Of a stretch of DNA of 64,000 nt, positions 2,843 to 59,164 are shown one piece after another. The stretch comes from Candidatus Altiarchaeota archaeon (GTDB lineage: Archaea; Altiarchaeota; Altiarchaeia; IMC4; SCGC-AAA252-I15), in assembly GCA_043800705.1 (NCBI GenBank), contig JAZDMS010000035.1:2579-66578 (forward strand). The letters are read 5' to 3'. Position 1 is the first letter of the stretch, and every line of letters starts with the position of its first letter. Under the pieces are notes generated by a model. That model saw only the letters and a program-made list of their open reading frames with translations. It did not search any database and had not been told where the DNA came from. A program made the translations under genes and the position numbers.

Positions 2843-4582
2843 TTATGCCTTAAGCTTTCTTTTCGCTTCCGCACTCATCAGACGGTTGTCCTGCGCCCAT
2901 ACCCCGTATCCTGCGATTAGACACAATAGCAGCATCAGGTTTCTGAAACCTGCCGCGTATAGGGCTTGCATGGATTGCTCAGAAGGTGACATAGTGTATA
3001 CGGCGTATCCTGCCAGCAATGACGCATCACCATCCCACTCTTGCTCTGCCAGCTGTTGCGGTTCCTGTGTCCTCATTTCTTGGACCGTAGTCAATGTAGT
3101 CGATGTAGTCAATGTAGTGCTTGCTGTAGTAGGCACTGTCGCTACAATCATCGGCCTAACCCTCATTGTCGAAGTCGTTGTGGGGGGTTCGGTCGTTGTC
3201 GGAGCAGTGCATTCTTCATCCACTAAGATACACCTATCTTGTAGACCACAGTACTTATACCCTGCATCAACTGCACATCCATGATTATCCAAAGTCGTGG
3301 TTGTCGGAGCCTCGATTGTTGTTGTGGTGGTAATAATGCGTTTATGTCCTCCGTTTCCGCCGGATGCTATGGTGGTTGTCGTTGTCGTCGTATCATCCGG
3401 ATTTGTGGTCGTTGTCGTGCCAAAATACACCCATATTTCTTTGCTCTGGTTCTCGTTACTCGGATCGGCTTCGTCGGTTACGTACCCGTACAGGCTGTAA
3501 TTGCCAAACAGGTTTAAGCCAAATGTGTCCCAAACGAGGGTATTTGTGCCGTTTACTGGGGGCAATAGATCTTCCACCCCGGGCGTCCCATTGTATGTAA
3601 ACCACAGCCTAAGCAGCGGGTTTGTCCCCTCTTGTACGCCCGCCGTTATGGTTATCGGGTCATCCTGCATAGCCGCCGACACATCGGTCGTGAACTTCGT
3701 TATATAAGGTGGCAGCGTCGTAGTCGTCGTTGTAGTAGGCGTTGGGGTTATTGGCCCTGTGACAGGATTGCCCTCTAAGCTAACCGCAGTCTGTGACAGC
3801 GCTCTGCCGTTCAGTACTGCGCCAGTTTGGATCGCAATATTCGTCATATCCAGGATATTTCCATTGAACGTAGAGTACGTTCCAAGTGTCGTTGTGTCAG
3901 CGACTCTCCAGAAAACATTCGCAGGTATGGCTCCACCGTTGAGTAATACCTTAATGCCGGAATCAACGTCACCAGCTGAGGCGATATTGAGAGTTCCTGG
4001 TATCTGGAATATCCATACATCAGTTGGGCCTCCATTGAGTGTGACATCCGTTGATATTGTCACGCCAGAAGTAAACGTATAAACACCCGGAGTGAGTGTC
4101 AGCCCGCCAAGCTCACCACTTCCAGCGTTGGTATCATCCATTGGACGTGCGCCGGCATCGGTATACGCGGTTCCCATGTCTAATACTGCGTTGTCGACAT
4201 AGGTCTTGTCAGTTGAGCTACCGGCATAACAGGTTATATCGCTGCTACCCGTATATGCCGCATCAACACCGTATATTGTCCCAGATATTTCTGAACAAAA
4301 TATATTGTCCATCGCGGCAGCACTAATCGGACTAGAGCCGATGTCCCCGGTTATAGCAGAACCATGGCTATCGGTGTTCGTGATTCCAGCTTTTGTTAGA
4401 ATCGCGAAATTGCCGGCTGTTCCAAGACCCACAGGTGCCGGCGATGCGTACGCAGACACTTCACATGCCATCACTGAAAAAAACATGAGGCATACTAAAC
4501 TAATTGTTGCTATTTTCATTTGTTCCGTTATTTGTTCCATTATTGTCCACCATTTATATGTTTTTTTACACTTTTTTTCCAT
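2843..4582 (-). CDS. DUF3494 (ice-binding-like) beta-solenoid surface protein with poly-Thr stalks and a C-terminal TM anchor
   Basis: LGTAGNFAILTKAGITNT, ITGDIGSSP, LTLTPGVYTF, VTLNGGPTDVWIFQIPGTLNIA, ANVFWRV and GRALSQTAVSLEGNPVT match the DUF3494 pattern. Several TTTTT runs follow. The C-terminus carries a hydrophobic segment, LMLLLCLIAGYGVWA. Confidence 0.8.
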   Translation of the reverse strand: MEKKCKKTYKWWTIMEQITEQMKIATISLVCLMFFSVMACEVSAYASPAPVGLGTAGNFAILTKAGITNTDSHGSAITGDIGSSPISAAAMDNIFCSEISGTIYGVDAAYTGSSDITCYAGSSTDKTYVDNAVLDMGTAYTDAGARPMDDTNAGSGELGGLTLTPGVYTFTSGVTISTDVTLNGGPTDVWIFQIPGTLNIASAGDVDSGIKVLLNGGAIPANVFWRVADTTTLGTYSTFNGNILDMTNIAIQTGAVLNGRALSQTAVSLEGNPVTGPITPTPTTTTTTTLPPYITKFTTDVSAAMQDDPITITAGVQEGTNPLLRLWFTYNGTPGVEDLLPPVNGTNTLVWDTFGLNLFGNYSLYGYVTDEADPSNENQSKEIWVYFGTTTTTNPDDTTTTTTTIASGGNGGHKRIITTTTTIEAPTTTTLDNHGCAVDAGYKYCGLQDRCILVDEECTAPTTTEPPTTTSTMRVRPMIVATVPTTASTTLTTSTTLTTVQEMRTQEPQQLAEQEWDGDASLLAGYAVYTMSPSEQSMQALYAAGFRNLMLLLCLIAGYGVWAQDNRLMSAEAKRKLKA

Positions 4583-28412: not shown

Positions 28413-29291
28413 TCATGCCTCGCATTTCACCGCTTTCGACCCGGATAGCATCTTCACCAGCGCGCAGCTCCTGCAGACCTCGTTCGACGAGGGTTCTCCA
28501 CAAAGCCTGCAAGAGCGGACATTCGCTCCGCTGAAACCCCCCCTCAGGCTCGGCAGAGCCTCGACAAGGCCCCGCACCATAGACTCCTTGGTCCCGGGCA
28601 TCTTGGCCTCGAAGCCGTTCAGGTAGCCTTTGACCTCGGTCCTGTACGAGTCCAACGAGCAGGGGCATGGCTCGTATTGGACAGGGAACCCGCGTATCTG
28701 GGAGTATCTCTTGACTTCCTCTTCGAGGCAGAAGTAGAGGGGCTTGATCCTGGGAACGAACCGCTCGTCCGGGGCTATCCCGGACTTCGGCCCGCTCCGA
28801 GCCATTGCAGCTATGTCTCCCCGGACGTAGTTCATCAGAAGGGTCTGGGCCTCGTCGTCCATGTTGTGGCCTGTCGCGATCGACGTCGCCTTAAGCCGCT
28901 TAGCCTCCCTGTTGAGGATGTTGCGCCTGATGACCCCGCAGATGGTGCATGAGTTCATGTGTATCCCCTTCCCGTCGAGGACGGACTTCATGTAGCATAC
29001 GGAGCATCCGTAGAGGTCGCGCATGTGCACTACGTGCAGGACGATCCCGTTTTCTCTGCAGAACGCCTGGATGTTCCCGAGGTTCCGCCTGGAATGCTCG
29101 CCGAGAAGCTGGTCGATCGTGAGCCCTTCGACGACGTAGCCGAGCTTCTTTAGGAGATAGAGGGCGGTAGTGGAGTCCTTCCCGCCGGATACTGCGACAA
29201 GGACCTTCTCGCGAGGCTTCAGGAGACGATGATTCAGGATAGTCGAGCGGACCTTCGTTTCGAACCGGGAAATGAACTTTTTGTCGTCCAC
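28413..29291 (-). CDS. PP-loop ATPase, TtcA/TtuA/NcsA-family tRNA thiolase
   Basis: VLVAVSGGKDSTT (SGGxDS PP-loop) plus Cys pairs CSVC, CTIC and CRLCG...CRSC. Confidence 0.8.
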   Translation of the reverse strand: MDDKKFISRFETKVRSTILNHRLLKPREKVLVAVSGGKDSTTALYLLKKLGYVVEGLTIDQLLGEHSRRNLGNIQAFCRENGIVLHVVHMRDLYGCSVCYMKSVLDGKGIHMNSCTICGVIRRNILNREAKRLKATSIATGHNMDDEAQTLLMNYVRGDIAAMARSGPKSGIAPDERFVPRIKPLYFCLEEEVKRYSQIRGFPVQYEPCPCSLDSYRTEVKGYLNGFEAKMPGTKESMVRGLVEALPSLRGGFSGANVRSCRLCGEPSSNEVCRSCALVKMLSGSKAVKCEA

Positions 29292-29292
29292 G

Positions 29293-30684
29293 TCAAACCC
29301 TCTCGACGGTCGACGATCCGTCCTTCTGGTCCTTGATCTTCAAACCCCGTTTAAGGAGTTCGTCCCTCAACCGGTCGGATTCTACCCAGTTCTTCGCAGC
29401 CCTCTGGAGGTCCCTCTCTTTTATGAGACCTTTATCATCGTCTGTCAAGTCGATGCCCGAGCCAAGGCGTAGGCCCATTACCCCGAAGAGGTCGTCGAAT
29501 ACGGCCTCAGCAGCCGTCAGGGATTCCGGAGAGTCTCCGCCTGCGTCCAAGACCGCGTTTACATGCCGCACGGAGTCGAATAACGCCCCGACAGCCTGGG
29601 GCGTGTTGAAGTCATCGTCCATATGGGCATCGAACACCCCCCTGAGCCTCTGCACATCATCTTTCGCAGCCGACCCAGATCCCTTCGCTGACCGGATTGC
29701 AAAGGAGATCCTCGTTTTGAAATCCGCAAGCCGCTGCGCGGCCTTTTTCGCGTTTTCCACGTTCTGCGTGGAGTAGTCCACCGGACTTCGATAGTGTGTC
29801 TGCAATATGAAAAGCCGGAACGCGTCGGCGCTGTACGTCTTCAGGAACTCCCGGACTGCCAGGATGTTTCCGAGGCTCTTGCTCATCTTCTCCCCCGACG
29901 AATTGAGGAATCCGGTATGCATCCAGTACCTGACGAACGGCCTCTTCCCGGTCAACGCTTCGCTCTGTGCGATTTCGTTCTCGTGGTGGGGGAATATCAG
30001 GTCGAGGGCGCCGCCGTGGATGTCTATCTGGTCGCCGAGGTGCCTCTGGCTCATGACCGTGCATTCGATGTGCCATCCCGGGCGGCCTACCCCCCAGGGG
30101 CTCTCGAATCCGAGCTCGCCCTCCCCGGTCCTCTTCCAAAGCGAGAAATCCAGAGGCGTCCGCTTGTCTGGATCGGGCTCGACACGGTGCTGGCCAAGCT
30201 GCTTGGTATCCTGGTTGGATAGGAGGCCGTAGCCTTCTGCCTTGGAGACGTCGAAGTAGACGCCCTTTTCAGTCACGTAGGCTATGCCCTTGCGTATGAG
30301 CGCTTCTGTTGCGGCTATTATTCCGCCGATGTTCTCCGTGACCTTCGGATATGCGTCGGCTTCGAGGAGGCCGAGGCTTCTCTGGTCTTCGTATGCCCGC
30401 CTCGCATATTCCTTCGAAAGTTCGAGCGGCCTGGTATTCCGTTCCTTGGCCCGCTTGATGATCTTGTCGTCGACGTCGGTGACGTTCTGTATGTACCGGA
30501 CCCTGTAGCCGCGGTACCGCAGGTACCGGAGGATCGAATCGAACGCCACATAGGTCCTTGCATGGCCTATGTGCATGTCGTCGTAGACAGTGAGGCCGCA
30601 GATGTAGACCCGGACTTCCCCGTCTGTGAGCGGCTTGAAGTCTTCAGTCTTCCTCGTCAATGTGTTGTATACCCTGAGTGCCAT
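29293..30684 (-). CDS. cysS: cysteine--tRNA ligase
   Basis: HIGHARTYV (HIGH) and KMSKSLGN (KMSKS) motifs. 463 aa. Confidence 0.95.
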   Translation of the reverse strand: MALRVYNTLTRKTEDFKPLTDGEVRVYICGLTVYDDMHIGHARTYVAFDSILRYLRYRGYRVRYIQNVTDVDDKIIKRAKERNTRPLELSKEYARRAYEDQRSLGLLEADAYPKVTENIGGIIAATEALIRKGIAYVTEKGVYFDVSKAEGYGLLSNQDTKQLGQHRVEPDPDKRTPLDFSLWKRTGEGELGFESPWGVGRPGWHIECTVMSQRHLGDQIDIHGGALDLIFPHHENEIAQSEALTGKRPFVRYWMHTGFLNSSGEKMSKSLGNILAVREFLKTYSADAFRLFILQTHYRSPVDYSTQNVENAKKAAQRLADFKTRISFAIRSAKGSGSAAKDDVQRLRGVFDAHMDDDFNTPQAVGALFDSVRHVNAVLDAGGDSPESLTAAEAVFDDLFGVMGLRLGSGIDLTDDDKGLIKERDLQRAAKNWVESDRLRDELLKRGLKIKDQKDGSSTVERV

Positions 30685-30695
30685 TTAAAAAAATT

Positions 30696-30790
30696 AGCGA
30701 GGGAAGGGATTCGCACCCTTGGTGGTACGGTTTGCCGTGGCGTTTTTGGCCTTTGCAGACCGTTCTGTTGGGCTACTCCAGCACCCTCGC
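30696..30790 (-). tRNA. tRNA-Cys(GCA)-like gene with an insertion of about 20 nt 3' of the anticodon and a non-canonical T-loop
   Basis: Minus strand: GCGAGGG-TG-CTGG..CAG-A-ACGGT-CTGCAA-[AGGCCAAAAACGCCACGGCA]-A-ACCGT-..-AAGGG-TGCGAAT-CCCTT-CCCTCGC-T. The acceptor (7 bp), anticodon (5 bp) and T (5 bp) stems are perfect. The T-loop has G where U55 is expected, and the D-loop lacks GG. Folded by hand, not verified by software. Confidence 0.5.
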
Positions 30791-30877
30791 ATATGTATCA
30801 AATAACGTGTTGTGTTTTAAATGCCGGAGGTAAAAATCACGAAGCGATTTTATTGGACTCCAGCACCCTCGCATGCA

Positions 30878-30968
30878 GTTTTCTGTTTTCGGTTTTCCGT
30901 TTTCCGATGTCTTTATTAGACATTCATTATTTTTTAATGCCCGAAACCGGAGACTGGAAACTGAAAAC
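30878..30968. repeat. inverted arrays of four GTTTTCN heptamers flanking a small palindrome
   Basis: GTTTTCT GTTTTCG GTTTTCC GTTTTCC, then GATGTCTTTATTAGACATTC, then ...CCGAAAC CGGAGAC TGGAAAC TGAAAAC. The right arm ends 1 nt before the cysE stop codon. Confidence 0.6.
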
Positions 30969-30969
30969 A

Positions 30970-31572
30970 TCATATGTTCCACTCCGGCGGTTTTTCCCCG
31001 GCCTCTTTGGGGTCTTTGTATCTTACGTAGGCCCCTTCGACGATGCGCAGCTGTCCTTTTGAGGTGACTACTGTGGAGTCTTCGGGGATGTCGTCGATTA
31101 TGACCGTGTGCGCCCCGATTCTGCTGTTTTTCTTCACTATTACGGGGCCGAGTATGGCTGCTCCTACGCCGATGGTGACGTTGTCTTCGATGGTGGGGTG
31201 TCTTTTGTTGCCTTTTTTGTCCCTCCACCAGCCGTGTCCTCCCAGTGTGACGCCGTGGTAGAGCATGACGTTGTCTCCTATCTCCGTCGTTTCCCCGATG
31301 ACTACCCCGGTGGCGTGGTCGATGAAGAACCGTTTCCCTATCTTCGCTGCGGGGTGGATCTCCGCGCCCGTGAGGAAGCGGCCGAGGTAGGATATCGCCC
31401 TTGGTATGAACGGGAGGCCTATGCTGTGCAGGGCGTGTGATATCCGGTAGAGGATTATGGCCTGTACGCCGGGGTACAATACCACTTCCAGGAAGTTTAT
31501 CCCCTTCTTGAGCGCAGGGTCCTTTTCGTATGCCACCTGGAAGACGTCGAACATCCTATTTCCTCTCCTCAT
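30970..31572 (-). CDS. cysE: serine O-acetyltransferase
   Basis: Hexapeptide-repeat core [43 protein letters not shown]. Confidence 0.9.
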
Positions 31573-32488
31573 ACAGCGGTGTCGAAAGGTATCTTTCGCC
31601 GGTGTCGGGGACGATGACCAATACGCGTTTTCCTTTTCCGAGCCGTTTAGCGACCGCCAGTGCCGCCCATACGTTCGCTCCGGAGGATATGCCTGCGAGG
31701 ATTCCCTCCTCCTTCGCCAGCCGCTCCGATGTCTTGTACGCGTCCTCGTTCTTCACCTGTATCACTTCGTCGACCAGCTCCTTCCGGTATATGTCCGGGA
31801 CGAATCCGGCCCCAATGCCCTGTATCTTGTGGGGGCCTGGTTGTCCTCCCGAGAGGACGGGGGAGTCTGCGGGCTCGACTGCGATGAATCTTGCGTTGAT
31901 GAATTTCTTCTTGAAGAAGGTCGCTATTCCGGTTATCGTCCCTCCTGTTCCGACTCCGGCGACGAATGCGTCGAATGAGCCGACTTCCGCCATTATCTCC
32001 TGCGCCGTTGTCTCGATGTGGGCTTTGATGTTGGCCTTGTTCTTGAACTGCTGGGGGATGAAGATGTGCGGCCCTTCCTTGGCGATCTCCTCGGCCTTGG
32101 CTATCGCGCCTTTCATCCCCTTTGCACCCTCAGTCAGGATGAGCTCGGCTCCGAATGCCTTCAGTATCTTCCGTCTCTCCAAGCTCATCGTCTCCGGCAT
32201 CGTCAGCTTAAGCCGGTATCCTTTGACTGCCGCGACCATGGCAAGCCCTATTCCCGTGTTGCCAGAGGTGGGCTCGACTATGATGCTTTCCTTCTTCAGG
32301 ACGCCCGCCTTCTCGGCTTCCTCGATCATGTACAATGCTATCCGGTCCTTCACCGAGGAGCCGGGGTTGAAGTATTCCAGCTTGGCTACCACTTCCGCGT
32401 CGTTTGGGCCGGGCAGCCTGTTGAGTCTCACGTGGGGTGTTCCGCCTATCGTCTCCAGTATGTTGTTTTTGATCGTCATTTGATTCAC
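31556..32488 (-). CDS. cysK: cysteine synthase (O-acetylserine sulfhydrylase)
   Basis: NPGSSVKDR (PLP Lys), [22 protein letters not shown]. Confidence 0.93.
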
Positions 32489-32633
32489 CTCTTTGTTATG
32501 CGTGTGGATATAAAAATCAAAGTTCGTATTGTGTCCGGGTTTTTGTTTTGTGTCAGGCGTTTATAGCCTACACTGGCAGAAACAACAGCCGCATGAGCGG
32601 GCCGTGAATGCAGTTATTCCCAGATCCATTTTG

Positions 32634-32647
32634 TTAACGATTGTTAA
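32634..32647. promoter_or_regulatory. candidate operator TTAACGATTGTTAA in the cysK/thiI divergent region, 4 nt before the thiI ATG
   Basis: Seen directly. It also reads as the direct repeat TTGTTAA-CGA-TTGTTAA. Confidence 0.45.
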
Positions 32648-32651
32648 TATT

Positions 32652-33833
32652 ATGGTGGTCCCATATAAATACTCACCCAGAGTTAATCTTAAAGTGGACT
32701 TCGACTGCATCCTCATTAGATACGGGGAAATAGGCCTGAAAGGCGGGAATCGGGGATTTTTCGAAAGGAAGCTCCAATCCAACATCGTTTGGGCGCTTAA
32801 GCGGGAGGGCGCCGTCTACGAAGTCGTGAAGAGGGTCCAGGGAAGGTTTCTCGTCGTATCAAAGGACGCCAAGGCTCTAGAGGCGGTAAGGAACGTCTTC
32901 GGGATAGTCTCATACAGTCCGGCCAATATGGTAGGATGTGGGGTTGAGGAGTTGTGTGAGGCAGCCGTGAAGATAGTGGTCGCCTCGAAGCCCGATTCGT
33001 TCAGGGTAACGACGCAGAGACTGGACAAGAGGATGGATACGACCTCACAGAAGATCAACGAGGCCGTCGGGGCCGGGATCGTCGCGAGGACCGGTGCCAA
33101 AGTCAGCCTAAAGTGCGCCAAATTGGATATCGGATTGGATGTCACCGGCGACTGCGCATACATCTTCACTGAAACGTTCGCAGGGCTCGGAGGCCTTCCA
33201 GTCGGCGTCTCGGCAAGGGTGCTGTGCCTCCTTTCCGGGGGTATCGACAGCCCGGTCGCCGCATGGCTGATGATGAAGAGGGGGTGCCAGGTTACGCTGG
33301 TCCATTTCATGCACGAGCAGGGGTGCAGGCTGCCTACGAAGATAGAGTGCCTTTATCGGTCCCTTTGCAGGTTTGGCCCCGGCCTCAGGCTGATAGTCGT
33401 CCCTGCCGCGGAGCTTGAGCGGGAGATCATCATGAAGGCGCCTTCGAAGGACAGGATAGTCATACTAAGGAATATGTTCCTCAAGGCTGCGGTGAAGCTA
33501 CTGCGCTCCGAGAGGGCCCACGCCATCGTCACCGGAGACAACGTGGGACAGGTGGCGTCGCAGACGATAGAGAACATGGAGGCTTATCAGGCAGGCATCG
33601 ACGCCCTCGTCCTGAGGCCGCTGGCATGCTATGACAAGCAGGAGATAATTGATCTGGCCAGGAGGGTCGGGACCTTCGAGGAGTCGACGTCCGCTTACGT
33701 CGACTGCTGCAGCTTCCTCGTCCCGAAGCATCCGCAGACGAAGGCCACCGCGGAGGATGTGGATTCGTCGGTCAGGTCCATGGACGAGGGCATATTGGAC
33801 CTGATTCTCTCGAAGATGATTTTCATCGATTAG
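32652..33833 (+). CDS. thiI: tRNA 4-thiouridine synthase ThiI (THUMP + PP-loop)
   Basis: ILIRYGEIGLKGGNRGFFE and LLSGGIDSPVAAW (PP-loop). The start is placed at ATG 32652 (MVVPYKYS). Confidence 0.88.
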   Translation: MVVPYKYSPRVNLKVDFDCILIRYGEIGLKGGNRGFFERKLQSNIVWALKREGAVYEVVKRVQGRFLVVSKDAKALEAVRNVFGIVSYSPANMVGCGVEELCEAAVKIVVASKPDSFRVTTQRLDKRMDTTSQKINEAVGAGIVARTGAKVSLKCAKLDIGLDVTGDCAYIFTETFAGLGGLPVGVSARVLCLLSGGIDSPVAAWLMMKRGCQVTLVHFMHEQGCRLPTKIECLYRSLCRFGPGLRLIVVPAAELEREIIMKAPSKDRIVILRNMFLKAAVKLLRSERAHAIVTGDNVGQVASQTIENMEAYQAGIDALVLRPLACYDKQEIIDLARRVGTFEESTSAYVDCCSFLVPKHPQTKATAEDVDSSVRSMDEGILDLILSKMIFID

Positions 33834-35077
33834 TCCGTGAGCCTTTTTTCGCCTTCCAGGAGCCTGATGCCGGTGGCGTCCTGGGCGACTTCGAGCATTC
33901 CACGGTATCTTCCGTCACTGCCCCGTAATGCGAAGAAGCGGAGGCATACGAATTTCCCCCGAAGCTGGAGCCAGTACTCGTCCGCGTCTTTCTGCCCGGA
34001 CTTGAACTCCTCAATGAGCCTGTTGAGCGCCTTGCCGGCCTTGGCCGGATACATGCTCTGGATCCTTGAGCCGATAGAGTCAGGGTTCCTTGCCGTGATC
34101 CTTTGTCTGGTCCCCTGGTTGTAGTAGACCACTATGTCGTTCTCGTCGACGAATGTCACGTCCAAGGGGAGGCTCTTGAGCAGGAGATTGACCTGTTCGT
34201 GCGTCAGGTTGCCGACATCCATATCGAGGCCTCCTGTGACTTGGACCCTGTCCGATGGCTTCGGCATGAATCCGTCCAGGGGGGACCCGTCTGATTGGGA
34301 CACATCTGCGGGGCGGATGCTGTCCCATTCATCAGCTGACATCAGGCTCAAAGCGCCGGGCAATAGGCTGTATTCCTCCTTCTTGATCTGGTCGCGCATT
34401 GTATGCATGAGGCGCCTAAGGGTCGTGATCGATGCGGGAGCAGACTCGTTCACCTGCTTCTTGGCGAGCCGCAGAAGGGTTCTTGCGTCCTCCTCCCGGG
34501 CCCTCAGGCCTTTCATAGGCTCGACGTAGCCCTTCGATTCCAGGATCGGGAAAAGCCGGGCTTCCAGGTTGGCATAATGCTCGACGTTTTCGGATAGCCG
34601 CTCGATATGCTTTGCAAGGACGTGCTTGACCGCGGAGAACGTCTTATTGTCCCATGTCCCGACAGCTCCGACGAGGCCGTCTATTTCCGACATGACCTTC
34701 TGCGCCTGTGCGTTCTCCGAAAGGTATGTGTCGATTAGGTGGCCTTGCGGGGCTTGAACTTTGACGCCCGCCTTCTCAGCGGCCTGGAAGACGTCCAGCG
34801 GCTTTGGGCCCTCTGCATGGGGGGCAATATTCCCAGCGCCTTTGCCCCCTTCGTTCCTTTGTATCTCGCCATTAAGTGCCCGGATGAGGTTTGCGACGTC
34901 GACGCCGCCCATACCCGCAAGCTCCTGGAGGGTGGCGATGTTCCCCATGGTCTTCCTCACGAGAGGATTGCGCAGACGGTCGTATTTTGGCGAGACGTTC
35001 AGGAGGAAATCAAGGAGGTAGGGATATTTCAGGAACAAGGCCCCCATCTTAGTCTCAGGTGCAAGGTCCACGGACAA
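33830..35077 (-). CDS. DUF1858/hemerythrin-like/DUF438/PAS protein
   Basis: N-terminus LFLKYPYLLDFLLNVSPKYDRLRNPLVRKTMGNIATLQELA (DUF1858-like). C-terminal PAS-like part (VTFVDENDIVVYYNQG...RFFALRGSDGRYRGMLEVAQD). Start uncertain: TTG 35077, GTG 35071 or ATG 35047. Confidence 0.7.
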   Translation of the reverse strand: MSVDLAPETKMGALFLKYPYLLDFLLNVSPKYDRLRNPLVRKTMGNIATLQELAGMGGVDVANLIRALNGEIQRNEGGKGAGNIAPHAEGPKPLDVFQAAEKAGVKVQAPQGHLIDTYLSENAQAQKVMSEIDGLVGAVGTWDNKTFSAVKHVLAKHIERLSENVEHYANLEARLFPILESKGYVEPMKGLRAREEDARTLLRLAKKQVNESAPASITTLRRLMHTMRDQIKKEEYSLLPGALSLMSADEWDSIRPADVSQSDGSPLDGFMPKPSDRVQVTGGLDMDVGNLTHEQVNLLLKSLPLDVTFVDENDIVVYYNQGTRQRITARNPDSIGSRIQSMYPAKAGKALNRLIEEFKSGQKDADEYWLQLRGKFVCLRFFALRGSDGRYRGMLEVAQDATGIRLLEGEKRLTD

Positions 35078-35093
35078 GATTATGAACCGAAGA

Positions 35094-35792
35094 TTATAAG
35101 CCCTCGGCCATGCTGTCAAGGAGCAGGAAAATGAGCCTTTTGGTCTCGCTGGTCCTCCAGGCATTGGTAAGGATCCCGTAAGGAGTACCTACGTATCTTC
35201 CGGGGACCAAGTCATCAGCAGATTCTGTTGCCATGGTCCGGACGTCCTGCATTGAGTATTCCAGGTGAAACTGTAGGCCGACGACTTTCCCGTCCAAGCC
35301 TTCGAATGCCTGGTTTGCGCAGGCCTTGCTCGCCGCGGTCCTCGTGCAGCCTTCAGGTATCGTGAATGTGTCTGCGTGCCAGTGCATAGGCCGGAATTTT
35401 TCCGGAAATCCCGCGAATGCCCGTGAACGGCGTCCTTCATCGGTGATGGATGTCTCATGCCAGCCGATCTCCCGTTCATTATTGCGGGTGACTTTCCCCC
35501 CAAGGATTATTGACAGAAGCTGCGCCCCCAGGCAGACTCCGAGGACGCATTTTTTCGCATCAACGGCCTCCGCCAGGAAAGTCTTCTCTCTGGCAAGCCA
35601 GGCGTGCTTCTCATCTGCGTAGGCGTTCATAGGGCCGCCCAAAACAGCAATCAGGTCGAAATCACCCACCAGGGGCAGTGATTCCCCAAGGTATAGGCGC
35701 GTGCATGCCGTCTTATGTCCCCTCTCCCTTGCCCAGGCGGCGATGTTAGCCGGCCCTTCGTTGGGGACATGCTGCAGGAGATGTACATTCAT
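35094..35792 (-). CDS. class I glutamine amidotransferase-like protein
   Basis: VLGVCLGAQLL nucleophile elbow and HWH...FHLE. GuaA-N-like size. Confidence 0.8.
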   Translation of the reverse strand: MNVHLLQHVPNEGPANIAAWARERGHKTACTRLYLGESLPLVGDFDLIAVLGGPMNAYADEKHAWLAREKTFLAEAVDAKKCVLGVCLGAQLLSIILGGKVTRNNEREIGWHETSITDEGRRSRAFAGFPEKFRPMHWHADTFTIPEGCTRTAASKACANQAFEGLDGKVVGLQFHLEYSMQDVRTMATESADDLVPGRYVGTPYGILTNAWRTSETKRLIFLLLDSMAEGL

Positions 35793-58356: not shown

Positions 58357-58626
58357 TTTCGAAACTATTATACGGCAAACCCTATATACTATGAGCTCAA
58401 ATAAAATAAGCTGATAACATTCGGGTTAAGCTTTATAATCGGATAATCCATATCAGATAACCCAATCGATCGCCATTAAGCCCACGCGAAGCAGCCGTTT
58501 AAGGCTGGCGAAGTTGCCATTGCAGACTCGCGAGGAGGAGTCGCAAGACATACTGCAGGGCAGTATGAAGACCTTCGCCCCCGGGGCTCGAGGCCACAAT
58601 ATTAGACAAAAAAAAATTAAAAAAAA

Positions 58627-58700
58627 GCCCACGTGTGGTAGCGGATATCCCTGCAGCCTTACTAAGGCTGGCTCATTTATCATCTTCGCCTACGTGGGCT
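58627..58700 (+). other. decayed tRNA-like copy (acceptor, D and anticodon-type arms present, T-arm missing)
   Basis: GCCCACG-TG-TGGTAGCGGATATCC..CAGCC-TTACTAA-GGCTG-..no T arm..-CGTGGGC. The same acceptor stem and A-rich upstream tract as the tRNA-Arg at 58738. Confidence 0.35.
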
Positions 58701-58737
58701 CGATGACACAACAAAAGACAAAAAAAACCAAAACAAA

Positions 58738-58809
58738 GCCCACGTGGGGTAGCGGATATCCTGGTGGCTTGCGGAGCCGCAGACTCGGGTTCGAATCCCG
58801 ACGTGGGCG
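58738..58809 (+). tRNA. tRNA-Arg (anticodon GCG)
   Basis: GCCCACG-TG-GGGT-AGCGGATA-TCCT-G-GTGGC-TTGCGGA-GCCGC-AGAC-TCGGG-TTCGAAT-CCCGA-CGTGGGC-G. Canonical T-loop, A14 and GG in the D-loop. Hand-folded. Confidence 0.85.
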
Positions 58810-59124
58810 TATCGTATCACGACAAAGGGAATTCTTATCACGAGCACGTCGGGATGTCACAACCTCGAAGGTTGTGCATAATCCCGACGTGGGCGCCAAT
58901 TCATATCACGATATCACGGGCAGGTCGGGATGACATGGCTCCGCAGAGTCATGGAATCCCGACGTGGGCGCGAAGTAAGGTCACGAACACGTCGGGAGGT
59001 CGCAGCATCGCGGGTTGTACAGAGTCCCGGCACGGACGCTTAAGGCCATACAGATTGCGAATCCGCACCATAGGCGGCCGGGATGTAAAAAGCCGAATGT
59101 TTTTTAGTAAAATCCCGACGTGGG
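58794..59124 (+). repeat. four direct copies of the tRNA-Arg 3' end (AATCCCGACGTGGGCG), three embedded in imperfect hairpin units
   Basis: 16-mers at 58794, 58880 and 58955, and a 14-mer at 59111. Each downstream copy is preceded by its complement (CACGTCGGGAT or GGTCGGGAT) and a variable central stem-loop. Confidence 0.7.
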
Positions 59125-59164
59125 GGCATCTTCTGTTTTGGGTTTTTATTTGGCTGTGCGTAGT

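Follow-up and report, generated by a model that had tools for sequence, protein, structure and literature searches.

The pylTSBCD cassette of methanogens places the tRNA-Pyl gene beside its synthetase and amino-acid biosynthesis genes. In Bacillus subtilis, the gltX-cysE-cysS operon carries a T-box leader that senses tRNA-Cys, and both the E. coli thrU-tyrU-glyT-thrT-tufB operon and mitochondrial 'tRNA punctuation' are cases of tRNA-mRNA co-transcripts. Here we describe an intron-containing tRNA-Cys(GCA) gene wedged between cysE and cysS on a 64,000-nucleotide stretch of Candidatus Altiarchaeota DNA (contig JAZDMS010000035.1). This whole 64-kb stretch is called the window; all positions follow its numbering, and the element was read directly on the minus strand. 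We consider it likely that the element is the Altiarchaeota tRNA-Cys orthologue within a cysteine and sulfur gene string, that it matures by the processing steps proposed below, and that the copies of tRNA ends around it are not a cysS switch.

The locus shares features with each of these systems and departs from each. As in pylTSBCD, the genes for cognate tRNA, synthetase and biosynthesis stand together in a single uninterrupted cluster on one strand, but this cluster serves a standard amino acid, runs in the order biosynthesis-tRNA-synthetase, has the tRNA gene wedged in with spacers of 5-25 nucleotides (nt), and is followed by further sulfur-transfer genes (ttuA-like, iscS, nifU, thiI). With the B. 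subtilis operon it has in common the linkage of cysE and cysS and a tie between tRNA-Cys and their expression; there, however, the tRNA acts in trans, whereas here the tRNA gene stands within the operon and nothing T-box-like was matched. As in the tufB operon and in tRNA punctuation, tRNA genes lie beside protein genes and cuts by RNase P and RNase Z would separate the messages, but this tRNA is cognate to the downstream synthetase and bears an intron, and its co-transcription is deduced from spacing only. Searching the literature for Altiarchaeota tRNA introns and for tRNA-Cys/cysS co-transcription turned up nothing specific.

The element has a nearly complete tRNA-Cys cloverleaf, built from the following parts.

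30696-30790, minus strand: tRNA-Cys(GCA) gene, 95 nt including the intron, identified by Rfam RF00005, an orthologue-only model and the kept cloverleaf
30753-30790, minus strand: 5' exon, tRNA nt 1-37, from sequence and alignment
30733-30752, minus strand: 20-nt intron at 37/38, AGGCCAAAAACGCCACGGCA, with a relaxed bulge-helix-bulge (BHB) motif
30696-30732, minus strand: 3' exon, nt 38-73, with T stem AAGGG/CCCUU and T loop UGCGAAU

All pairs are formed in the acceptor stem GCGAGGG/CCCUCGC (7/7), the anticodon stem ACGGU/ACCGU (5/5) and the T stem AAGGG/CCCUU (5/5, all Watson-Crick), while the D stem CUGG/ACAG combines three pairs with a G13.A22 mismatch common to all relatives. The GCA anticodon (30754-30756) lies in the loop CUGCAA...A with U33 and A37 present; the variable region is 6 nt long, the discriminator U73 is at 30696, and CCA is not encoded in the gene. 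The D loop, AGUAGCCCA, has A18 at 30774 instead of the conserved G18, and the T loop UGCGAAU has G55 at 30714. Past the 3' end come the trailer AAUUUUUUUAA and, across an 11-nt spacer, the cysS ATG at 30684. A preliminary description made from the sequence had already recognised a 95-nt tRNA-shaped sequence with a GCA anticodon and perfect acceptor, anticodon and T stems, an insertion of about 20 nt after position 37, a G at the place of U55, and a 3' end followed by a trailer and the cysS start, and in all of this it was accurate. It also reported a D loop without its GG pair; the pair is indeed missing, but only through a single G18-to-A change, and G19 is kept.

Covariance scoring and comparative pairing identify the element as orthologous to the Altiarchaeota tRNA-Cys(GCA) gene and place it in the tRNA family. 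Run on the region with permissive filters, the Rfam tRNA model RF00005 scores it at 40.2 bits (E 3e-7) versus a gathering score of 29, placing a 22-nt insert in the anticodon loop. Rfam with default filters across the whole 64-kb window made no call for it, and ARAGORN, with and without its intron mode, did not call it either; we attribute the ARAGORN miss to the odd T loop, not to the absence of a tRNA. A covariance model (R1) built from 12 orthologous tRNA-Cys genes, with the window sequence excluded, recovered the element at 69.3 bits (E 2e-13) when run against the 64 kb and returned no second tRNA-Cys-like match within it.

Pairing in the family is strongly constrained. In an alignment of 10 spliced orthologues, 95.4% of stem cells are paired, the acceptor, anticodon and T stems are 100% paired across the 10 sequences, and nine pairs have changed on both sides. 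None of the shuffles (0/500) matches the pairing of the alignment, and slid registers do not come close. Relative to its nearest relatives, the window gene has exchanged G49:C65 for A:U and G50.U64 for A:U in the T stem with pairing kept, and compensatory changes of this kind are predicted by purifying selection on a working tRNA, not by decay. The GCA anticodon and the U73 discriminator, which are elements of recognition by cysteinyl-tRNA synthetase (CysRS), are present here and invariant in all 13 orthologues across which identity elements were compared. Judged on these comparisons, the tRNA-Cys with G55 is probably functional.

Cognate tRNA, synthetase and cysteine biosynthesis genes are physically coupled at this locus, and the coupling is conserved. 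The genes around the tRNA are these.

29293-30684, minus strand: cysS, cysteine--tRNA ligase, 463 amino acids (TIGR00435, 489.5 bits)
30970-31572, minus strand: cysE, serine O-acetyltransferase (TIGR01172 / NF041874)
31556-32488, minus strand: cysK, cysteine synthase A (TIGR01139, 444 bits)
28413-29291, minus strand: PP-loop tRNA thiolation enzyme (TtuA/NcsA/TtcA-like), its start overlapping the cysS stop

The string cysK-cysE-tRNACys-cysS-ttuA-like runs on one strand, with thiI divergent. The window CysRS has a 100% identical counterpart in a Candidatus Altiarchaeota metagenome-assembled genome (MAG), starts with the MxLRVYN common to its orthologues, and has about 40 best relatives that are all from Altiarchaeota; an exact-match look-up of the protein gave no entry, and querying the genome collection with it gave, among the matches listed, only distant bacterial and archaeal cysS loci that share universal motifs. 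Contigs encoding CysRS relatives and a metagenome scan with a tRNA pattern together yielded about 16 distinct lineages (L- and P-numbers label the loci or lineages compared with the window). Eleven of them, the window included, have a tRNA-Cys(GCA) between cysE and cysS, the other ten being L082/L090, L084, L087, L088, L092, L093, L120, L122, L123 and L124. Thus the contiguity of cysK, cysE, tRNA-Cys and cysS, which the preliminary description had pointed out in the window, extends to relatives. Most of these orthologues are canonical, scoring 57-66 bits and having a D-loop GG and the T loop UUCRAAU. From tRNA to cysS ATG the spacer measures 11 nt in the window, 5 nt in L084, 22 nt in L088 and about 25 nt in L120, and from cysE stop to tRNA it is 7-11 nt in L084, L092 and L093. 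The genes are also found apart: L091 has the tRNA 3' of cysK-cysE with cysS not adjoining, L089 has tRNA-Cys away from both cysE and cysS, and cysS stands without an upstream tRNA in L081, L118, L119, L126 and the P0007 locus. The tRNA-Cys and cysS genes can therefore be separated, although they mostly stand side by side.

The insertion lies exactly at the canonical 37/38 intron site, and removing 30733-30752 restores the 7-nt loop CUGCAAA. In the splice register, an outer helix of 5 pairs, a central helix with 3/4 pairs and an inner helix of 3 pairs (GGC/GCC) surround two 3-nt bulges, A36-A37-A on the 5' side and C-A-A38 on the 3' side. The central helix consists of C32:G, U33.G, G34:C and a C35.A mismatch. 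Enumeration of the region made this register the best BHB candidate and found none with 4/4 central pairs anywhere in it. A BHB prediction at 37/38 is thus available for the supposed intron, but with 3/4 central pairs it falls short of the strict hBHBh' motif (two 3-nt bulges with 4 bp between them).

Relatives place this intron in a known class. Archaeal BHB introns, which are cut by EndA, share with it the 37/38 site, two 3-nt bulges, a central helix of four positions and a 3-bp inner helix; the window intron differs in its 3/4 central pairs, one of them G.U, and in a more stable competing fold. The latter contains a 3x3 internal loop and is the minimum free energy (MFE) structure at -13.8 kcal/mol, versus -7.4 kcal/mol for the BHB register. 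Three lineages have 37/38 introns, of 20 nt (window), 41 nt (L124) and 83 nt (L082/L090). The 3' junction ACGGCA/A of the window (slash at the splice site) matches GCGGCA/A of the L124 intron, in which the first G pairs with C35, and the 83-nt intron of L082/L090 has a perfect 4-bp central helix. On this comparison the window intron is homologous to spliceable introns, and its motif counts only as a relaxed BHB.

The second departure lies in the elbow, where A18 and G55 replace both partners of the tertiary pair that is normally G18-U55. The elbow residues G19, U54, C56 and A58 are retained, and G19-C56, U54-A58 and G53-C61 are intact. U55 is among the most conserved tRNA nucleotides, as studies of elbow conservation record (PMC7912444), and G55 is unique among the 13 orthologues. 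A18 recurs in L120/L121, where U55 is kept; L120 is the closest relative and the lineage with the most similar CysRS fragment. Because A18 was found there in two independent assemblies, we count it as real, and A18 probably came earlier and G55 later. The tRNA-Arg gene of the same window has a normal elbow, so the oddity is specific to tRNA-Cys. We read A18/G55, known in the window gene from one MAG, as a lineage-specific change of both elbow partners in a gene otherwise under purifying selection. With its A18/G55 elbow and relaxed BHB, the gene is an unusual but recognisable member of the 37/38-intron class, not a regulator of a novel type.

Spacing makes co-transcription of cysE, tRNA-Cys and cysS the simplest arrangement to propose. 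Three features frame the transcription of the locus.

30815-30821, minus strand: TTTAAAA, a TATA-like box at -31 to -25 from tRNA nt 1, a possible tRNA promoter
30687-30693, minus strand: T7 tract in the tRNA-cysS spacer, a possible archaeal oligo-T terminator
30878-30968, minus strand: long imperfect palindrome with GUUUUC/GAAAAC-rich arms directly after the cysE stop (-22.9 kcal/mol, z -2.75)

The 5-25 nt before cysS leave no space for a promoter, and the cysS message is therefore most likely tRNA read-through; in the window, the stretch 25-31 nt upstream of the cysS ATG falls within the T arm and is not rich in A and T. Where only 7-11 nt separate cysE from the tRNA, as in the relatives named above, the tRNA must be read through from cysKE, and this tight spacing implies a tRNA-mRNA co-transcript. 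In the window, the tRNA could be transcribed by read-through from cysKE and/or from the TATA-like box, which stands about as far from the start as archaeal TATA boxes usually do. RNase P would trim the 5' leader, the splicing endonuclease would cut out the 20-nt intron at the weakened BHB and the exons would be ligated, the 3' trailer would be cut after U73 and CCA added, and the CysRS encoded 11 nt downstream would charge the product. On a single transcript, RNase P and the trailer nuclease would cut the tRNA free and set the 3' end of the cysKE message, and the trailer cut would also give the cysS-ttuA message a near-leaderless 5' end.

Archaeal oligo-T tracts usually act as terminators. The T7 tract may limit read-through from tRNA to cysS, in this organism only, and together with the T5 run of an upstream hairpin (see below) it could stop part of the transcription and favour tRNA over cysS. 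The U-tract is absent in relatives: L084 has AAGAC in its place and L088 has AAAAAAACTCCGCACACAAAAA. Since neither T5 nor T7 is conserved, they represent a local feature, not a conserved attenuator. The palindrome after cysE, the only site of its kind within the window, may be an mRNA 3'-end or terminator structure. Comparable CUUUC/GAAAG hairpins lie 3' of tRNA-Cys genes in relatives.

A copy of the tRNA 5' end lies upstream of the gene, within a hairpin of its own.

30857-30872, minus strand: exact copy of tRNA nt 1-16, GCGAGGGTGCTGGAGT
30819-30868, minus strand: two-tier hairpin (-20.1 kcal/mol, z -3.6)

The preliminary description gave an 18-nt copy 82 nt upstream, which we could reproduce as 16 nt of exact tRNA copy plus the preceding AT (to 30874). 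The two occurrences are 82 nt apart start to start, with 64 nt between the repeats, and 0/5000 shuffles of the upstream region gave a copy as long as 16 nt. In the outer tier, copy nt 5-15 pair with CUCCGGCAUUU (30819-30829); the inner hairpin AAAAUCGC-UUC-GUGAUUUU (30833-30851) ends in the T5 run (30832-30836). The same 16 nt recur at -82 in L082, at -83 in L090, at -80 in L088 and twice in L091 (about -126 and about -79). Unit number varies within one population, from one in L082 to at least two tandem 82-83-nt units in L090. All six units from relatives share the two-tier fold, their inner stems differing in sequence with pairing kept, and in every unit copy nt 7-15 pair with a downstream complement around a small hairpin that has one A-rich and one U-rich arm. 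These units were judged by per-sequence folds, the MAFFT alignment being structurally too inconsistent for pair counts. L123 and L122 carry shorter copies, of 9 nt (4/5000 shuffles) and 7 nt (95/5000) respectively, that match the 5' end of their own, different tRNA, and six other lineages with the same gene order have no 5'-end copy. The 3' end is copied as well: about 95-112 nt past the tRNA-Cys gene, L082 has a copy of 14 nt and L124 one of 20 nt.

Further hairpins accompany the copies in relatives. A homologous hairpin (...GGGTTGATAAGGGC...CCGTAGGTGCCC...TTAT) precedes the 3'-end copy in both lineages, within 2556-2690 of L082 and 2922-3045 of L124. In L124, 10 nt separate the copy from the true cysS start, which reads ATGACGTTGCGCGTGTAC at about 3046, and the gene call from 3001 (GTG) is for that reason probably too long. 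In L088, about 110-150 nt upstream of tRNA-Cys on the minus strand, a perfect 16-17-bp hairpin, GCGAGGUAAGCGCAACAC-UUCG-GUGUUGCUUACCUCGC (-23.9 kcal/mol, z -6.2), has ends equal to the tRNA-Cys acceptor strands (GCGAGG...CCUCGC); this acceptor-stem 'minihelix' lies in the interval from cysE to the module with the 5' copy.

Integrating elements classically leave direct repeats of tRNA ends as their footprint, and a repeat of that type, 16 nt and exact, is present here. In Caldiarchaeum, element integration has been invoked to explain a 5' fragment upstream of the intron-bearing tRNA-Thr gene along with intron polymorphism (PMC3293823), and pTN3-like archaeal integrases use the 5' half of tRNA genes (PMC8371274). 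The copy resembles such fragments in that the identity runs slightly outside the gene and into the D loop and in that intron presence varies among relatives. It differs from them in having 64 nt between the repeats, no recombinase gene, an inverted copy around a small hairpin, tandem units in some strains and a spacing conserved across lineages. That constancy of spacing argues against a simple integration relic, and the paired inverted copy is not explained by integration. A search for attP, the attachment site on the element, with the 16-mer in viral contigs returned 24 matches, all in unrelated coding sequence.

Other origins were rejected. No BHB connects the copy's end with tRNA position 17, as a split tRNA or D-loop intron would have it; by eye, the ends of the 64-nt spacer lack the terminal inverted repeats of a miniature inverted-repeat transposable element or target-site duplication; and the copies occur only beside their own tRNA, unlike a genome-wide repeat of the repetitive extragenic palindrome (REP) type.

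End copies also surround the tRNA-Arg(GCG) gene of the same window.

58738-58809, plus strand: tRNA-Arg(GCG) gene, surrounded by partial copies of itself (58478-59130)

Upstream of it, a tandem unit of about 111 nt (58584-58650 versus 58696-58761) holds a pseudo-tRNA at 58627-58700, made up of acceptor strands plus D and anticodon-like arms, the T arm being absent. Downstream, the last 16 nt of the tRNA (AATCCCGACGTGGGCG) are repeated at 58880, 58955 and 59111, their pairing partners being inverted copies at 58845, 58921 and 58987. Most of these 3'-end copies adjoin an inverted copy and a small nested hairpin, and the module at 58806-58895 folds strongly (-34 kcal/mol, z -4), one small hairpin being nested within a larger one. 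The surroundings of tRNA-Arg show no integrase: thiC lies upstream, and the downstream open reading frames have no Pfam match. Flanking of tRNA-Arg by similar end copies indicates a general feature of tRNA loci in this lineage, not cysS control, and we therefore rejected the 5' copy as a cysS-specific device. We place the 5'-copy module in a recurring class of tRNA-end hairpins. The end-copy modules probably arose by integration-type or local duplication at tRNA ends, and the 5'-copy module would now be at most a structured spacer or terminator after cysE.

Several observations weigh against the account we favour, that of a spliced, functional tRNA-Cys in a cysteine operon flanked by end copies of duplicative origin. 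The T7 tract directly 5' of cysS would be expected to stop much of the transcription, and the TATA-like box is not clearly conserved among relatives. The BHB register is 6.4 kcal/mol worse than the MFE fold, versus only 1.3-1.6 in L082/L124, a cost that makes splicing competence uncertain. G55 replaces a highly conserved nucleotide and was seen in this MAG and in no other fetched locus. There are no integrase or element genes between or beside the repeats, whose neighbours are cysE and cysS, and the copy is perfect although its spacer has diverged, which neutral decay of a relic does not predict.

That last observation leads to the possibility that the 5'-end copy and its complement are functional, as a decoy against mispairing, as a processing or terminator module, or as a decoy or protected attachment site. 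In five of six units the copy is identical at 16/16 positions, whereas the spacers are no longer alike and the inner stems, still paired, vary in sequence; the spacing of the copy stays within 80-83 nt, L123 and L122 carry shorter copies that match their own tRNA, the 3' modules of L082 and L124 are homologous across clades, and tRNA-Arg shows the same architecture. Against this stand the six lineages that keep the gene order and lack the copy, the difference in unit number between L082 and L090 that slippage-prone repeats would be expected to show, and the lack of any match to a known family. Moreover, the copies could stay identical through concerted evolution with the neighbouring tRNA, which is under strong selection. 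We regard a function for the copy as conceivable but unlikely.

It is also improbable that the gene is a decaying tRNA-Cys pseudogene, with another tRNA-Cys elsewhere in the genome doing the work. Decay would accommodate the unique G55, the C.A mismatch in the central BHB helix, the energetic penalty on the BHB register and the ARAGORN miss. Yet all 21 stem pairs are intact except the family-wide G13.A22, the stem substitutions specific to the window are compensatory, and the anticodon loop, U73, G19-C56, U54-A58 and G53-C61 are preserved. The 64 kb hold no other tRNA-Cys-like match, and archaeal genomes usually have non-redundant tRNA genes (PMC3293823).

A broader proposal goes further than a function for the copy alone. 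It holds that an undescribed class of modules, each a tRNA-end copy paired with its inverted neighbour and kept the same as the tRNA, flanks Altiarchaeota tRNA genes, acting in processing or termination or as decoy or shielded attachment sites against integrating elements. At tRNA-Cys the module, the weak BHB, A18/G55 and the U7 tract would jointly fix the share of transcript that matures and the share that runs on into cysS, so that maturation of the tRNA would gate synthetase expression. We find this combination quite doubtful.

We give almost no credence to the last alternative, also raised in the preliminary description, in which a tRNA-mimic leader or attenuator would set the transcription of cysS by sensing CysRS or tRNA-Cys: the element does end 11 nt before the cysS ATG, with U7 following, its elbow is non-canonical and a predicted fold pairs the AU-rich leader with the trailer and start codon, but the orthologues in this position are ordinary tRNAs (57-66 bits) and lack the U-tract, tRNA-Cys occurs without a downstream cysS (L091, L089) and cysS without the tRNA (L081, L118, L119, L126, P0007), the 5' copy is not special to this locus, and no T-box or leader family appears in Rfam at E<=10 beyond noise. 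The other reading in that description, a real intron-containing tRNA-Cys beside its synthetase and perhaps co-transcribed with it, is the one that orthology, synteny and covariation in relatives support.

A wider sulfur neighbourhood of cysS is kept across Altiarchaeota (28413-35164 in the window; L081-L084, L118, L119, L123 and L124), in an order that differs among lineages. It comprises cysK, cysE, tRNA-Cys, cysS, a TtuA/NcsA-like thiolase, thiI, iscS-like and nifU-like genes, a DUF7343/MarR-like regulator and HMA copper-handling genes. Adjoining thiI in the window is a 444-amino-acid protein (33830-35164, minus strand) with DUF1858, hemerythrin and PAS domains and no NCBIfam match, possibly a sensor of O2, NO or iron. 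In the L082 lineage only, a class-A-like beta-lactamase gene (2884-3945; Pfam Beta-lactamase2, 147 bits) lies between tRNA-Cys and cysS, downstream of the 3'-end copy, which suggests an insertion event at the tRNA locus.

Standard gene finders miss genes of this kind. Rfam gave no match for the L082 gene with the 83-nt intron (2397-2555), even at E<=0.1, and genomes may for this reason be wrongly scored as lacking tRNA-Cys.

The interest of the locus rests on a probably functional G55 tRNA, a conserved tRNA-punctuated cysteine operon and unexplained tRNA-end hairpin modules. The operon joins a cognate tRNA to its synthetase and biosynthesis genes across a poorly studied archaeal phylum, and it implies tRNA-punctuated mRNA processing in archaea. 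The hairpin modules bear on tRNA gene disruption, duplication and targeting by mobile elements. If functional, the gene would supply a natural elongator tRNA in which A18/G55 replaces the near-universal G18-U55 (Psi55) contact, and it would be suited to asking how far that contact is needed for folding, for Psi55 and T-loop modification, and for recognition by CysRS, RNase P and RNase Z, and the ribosome.

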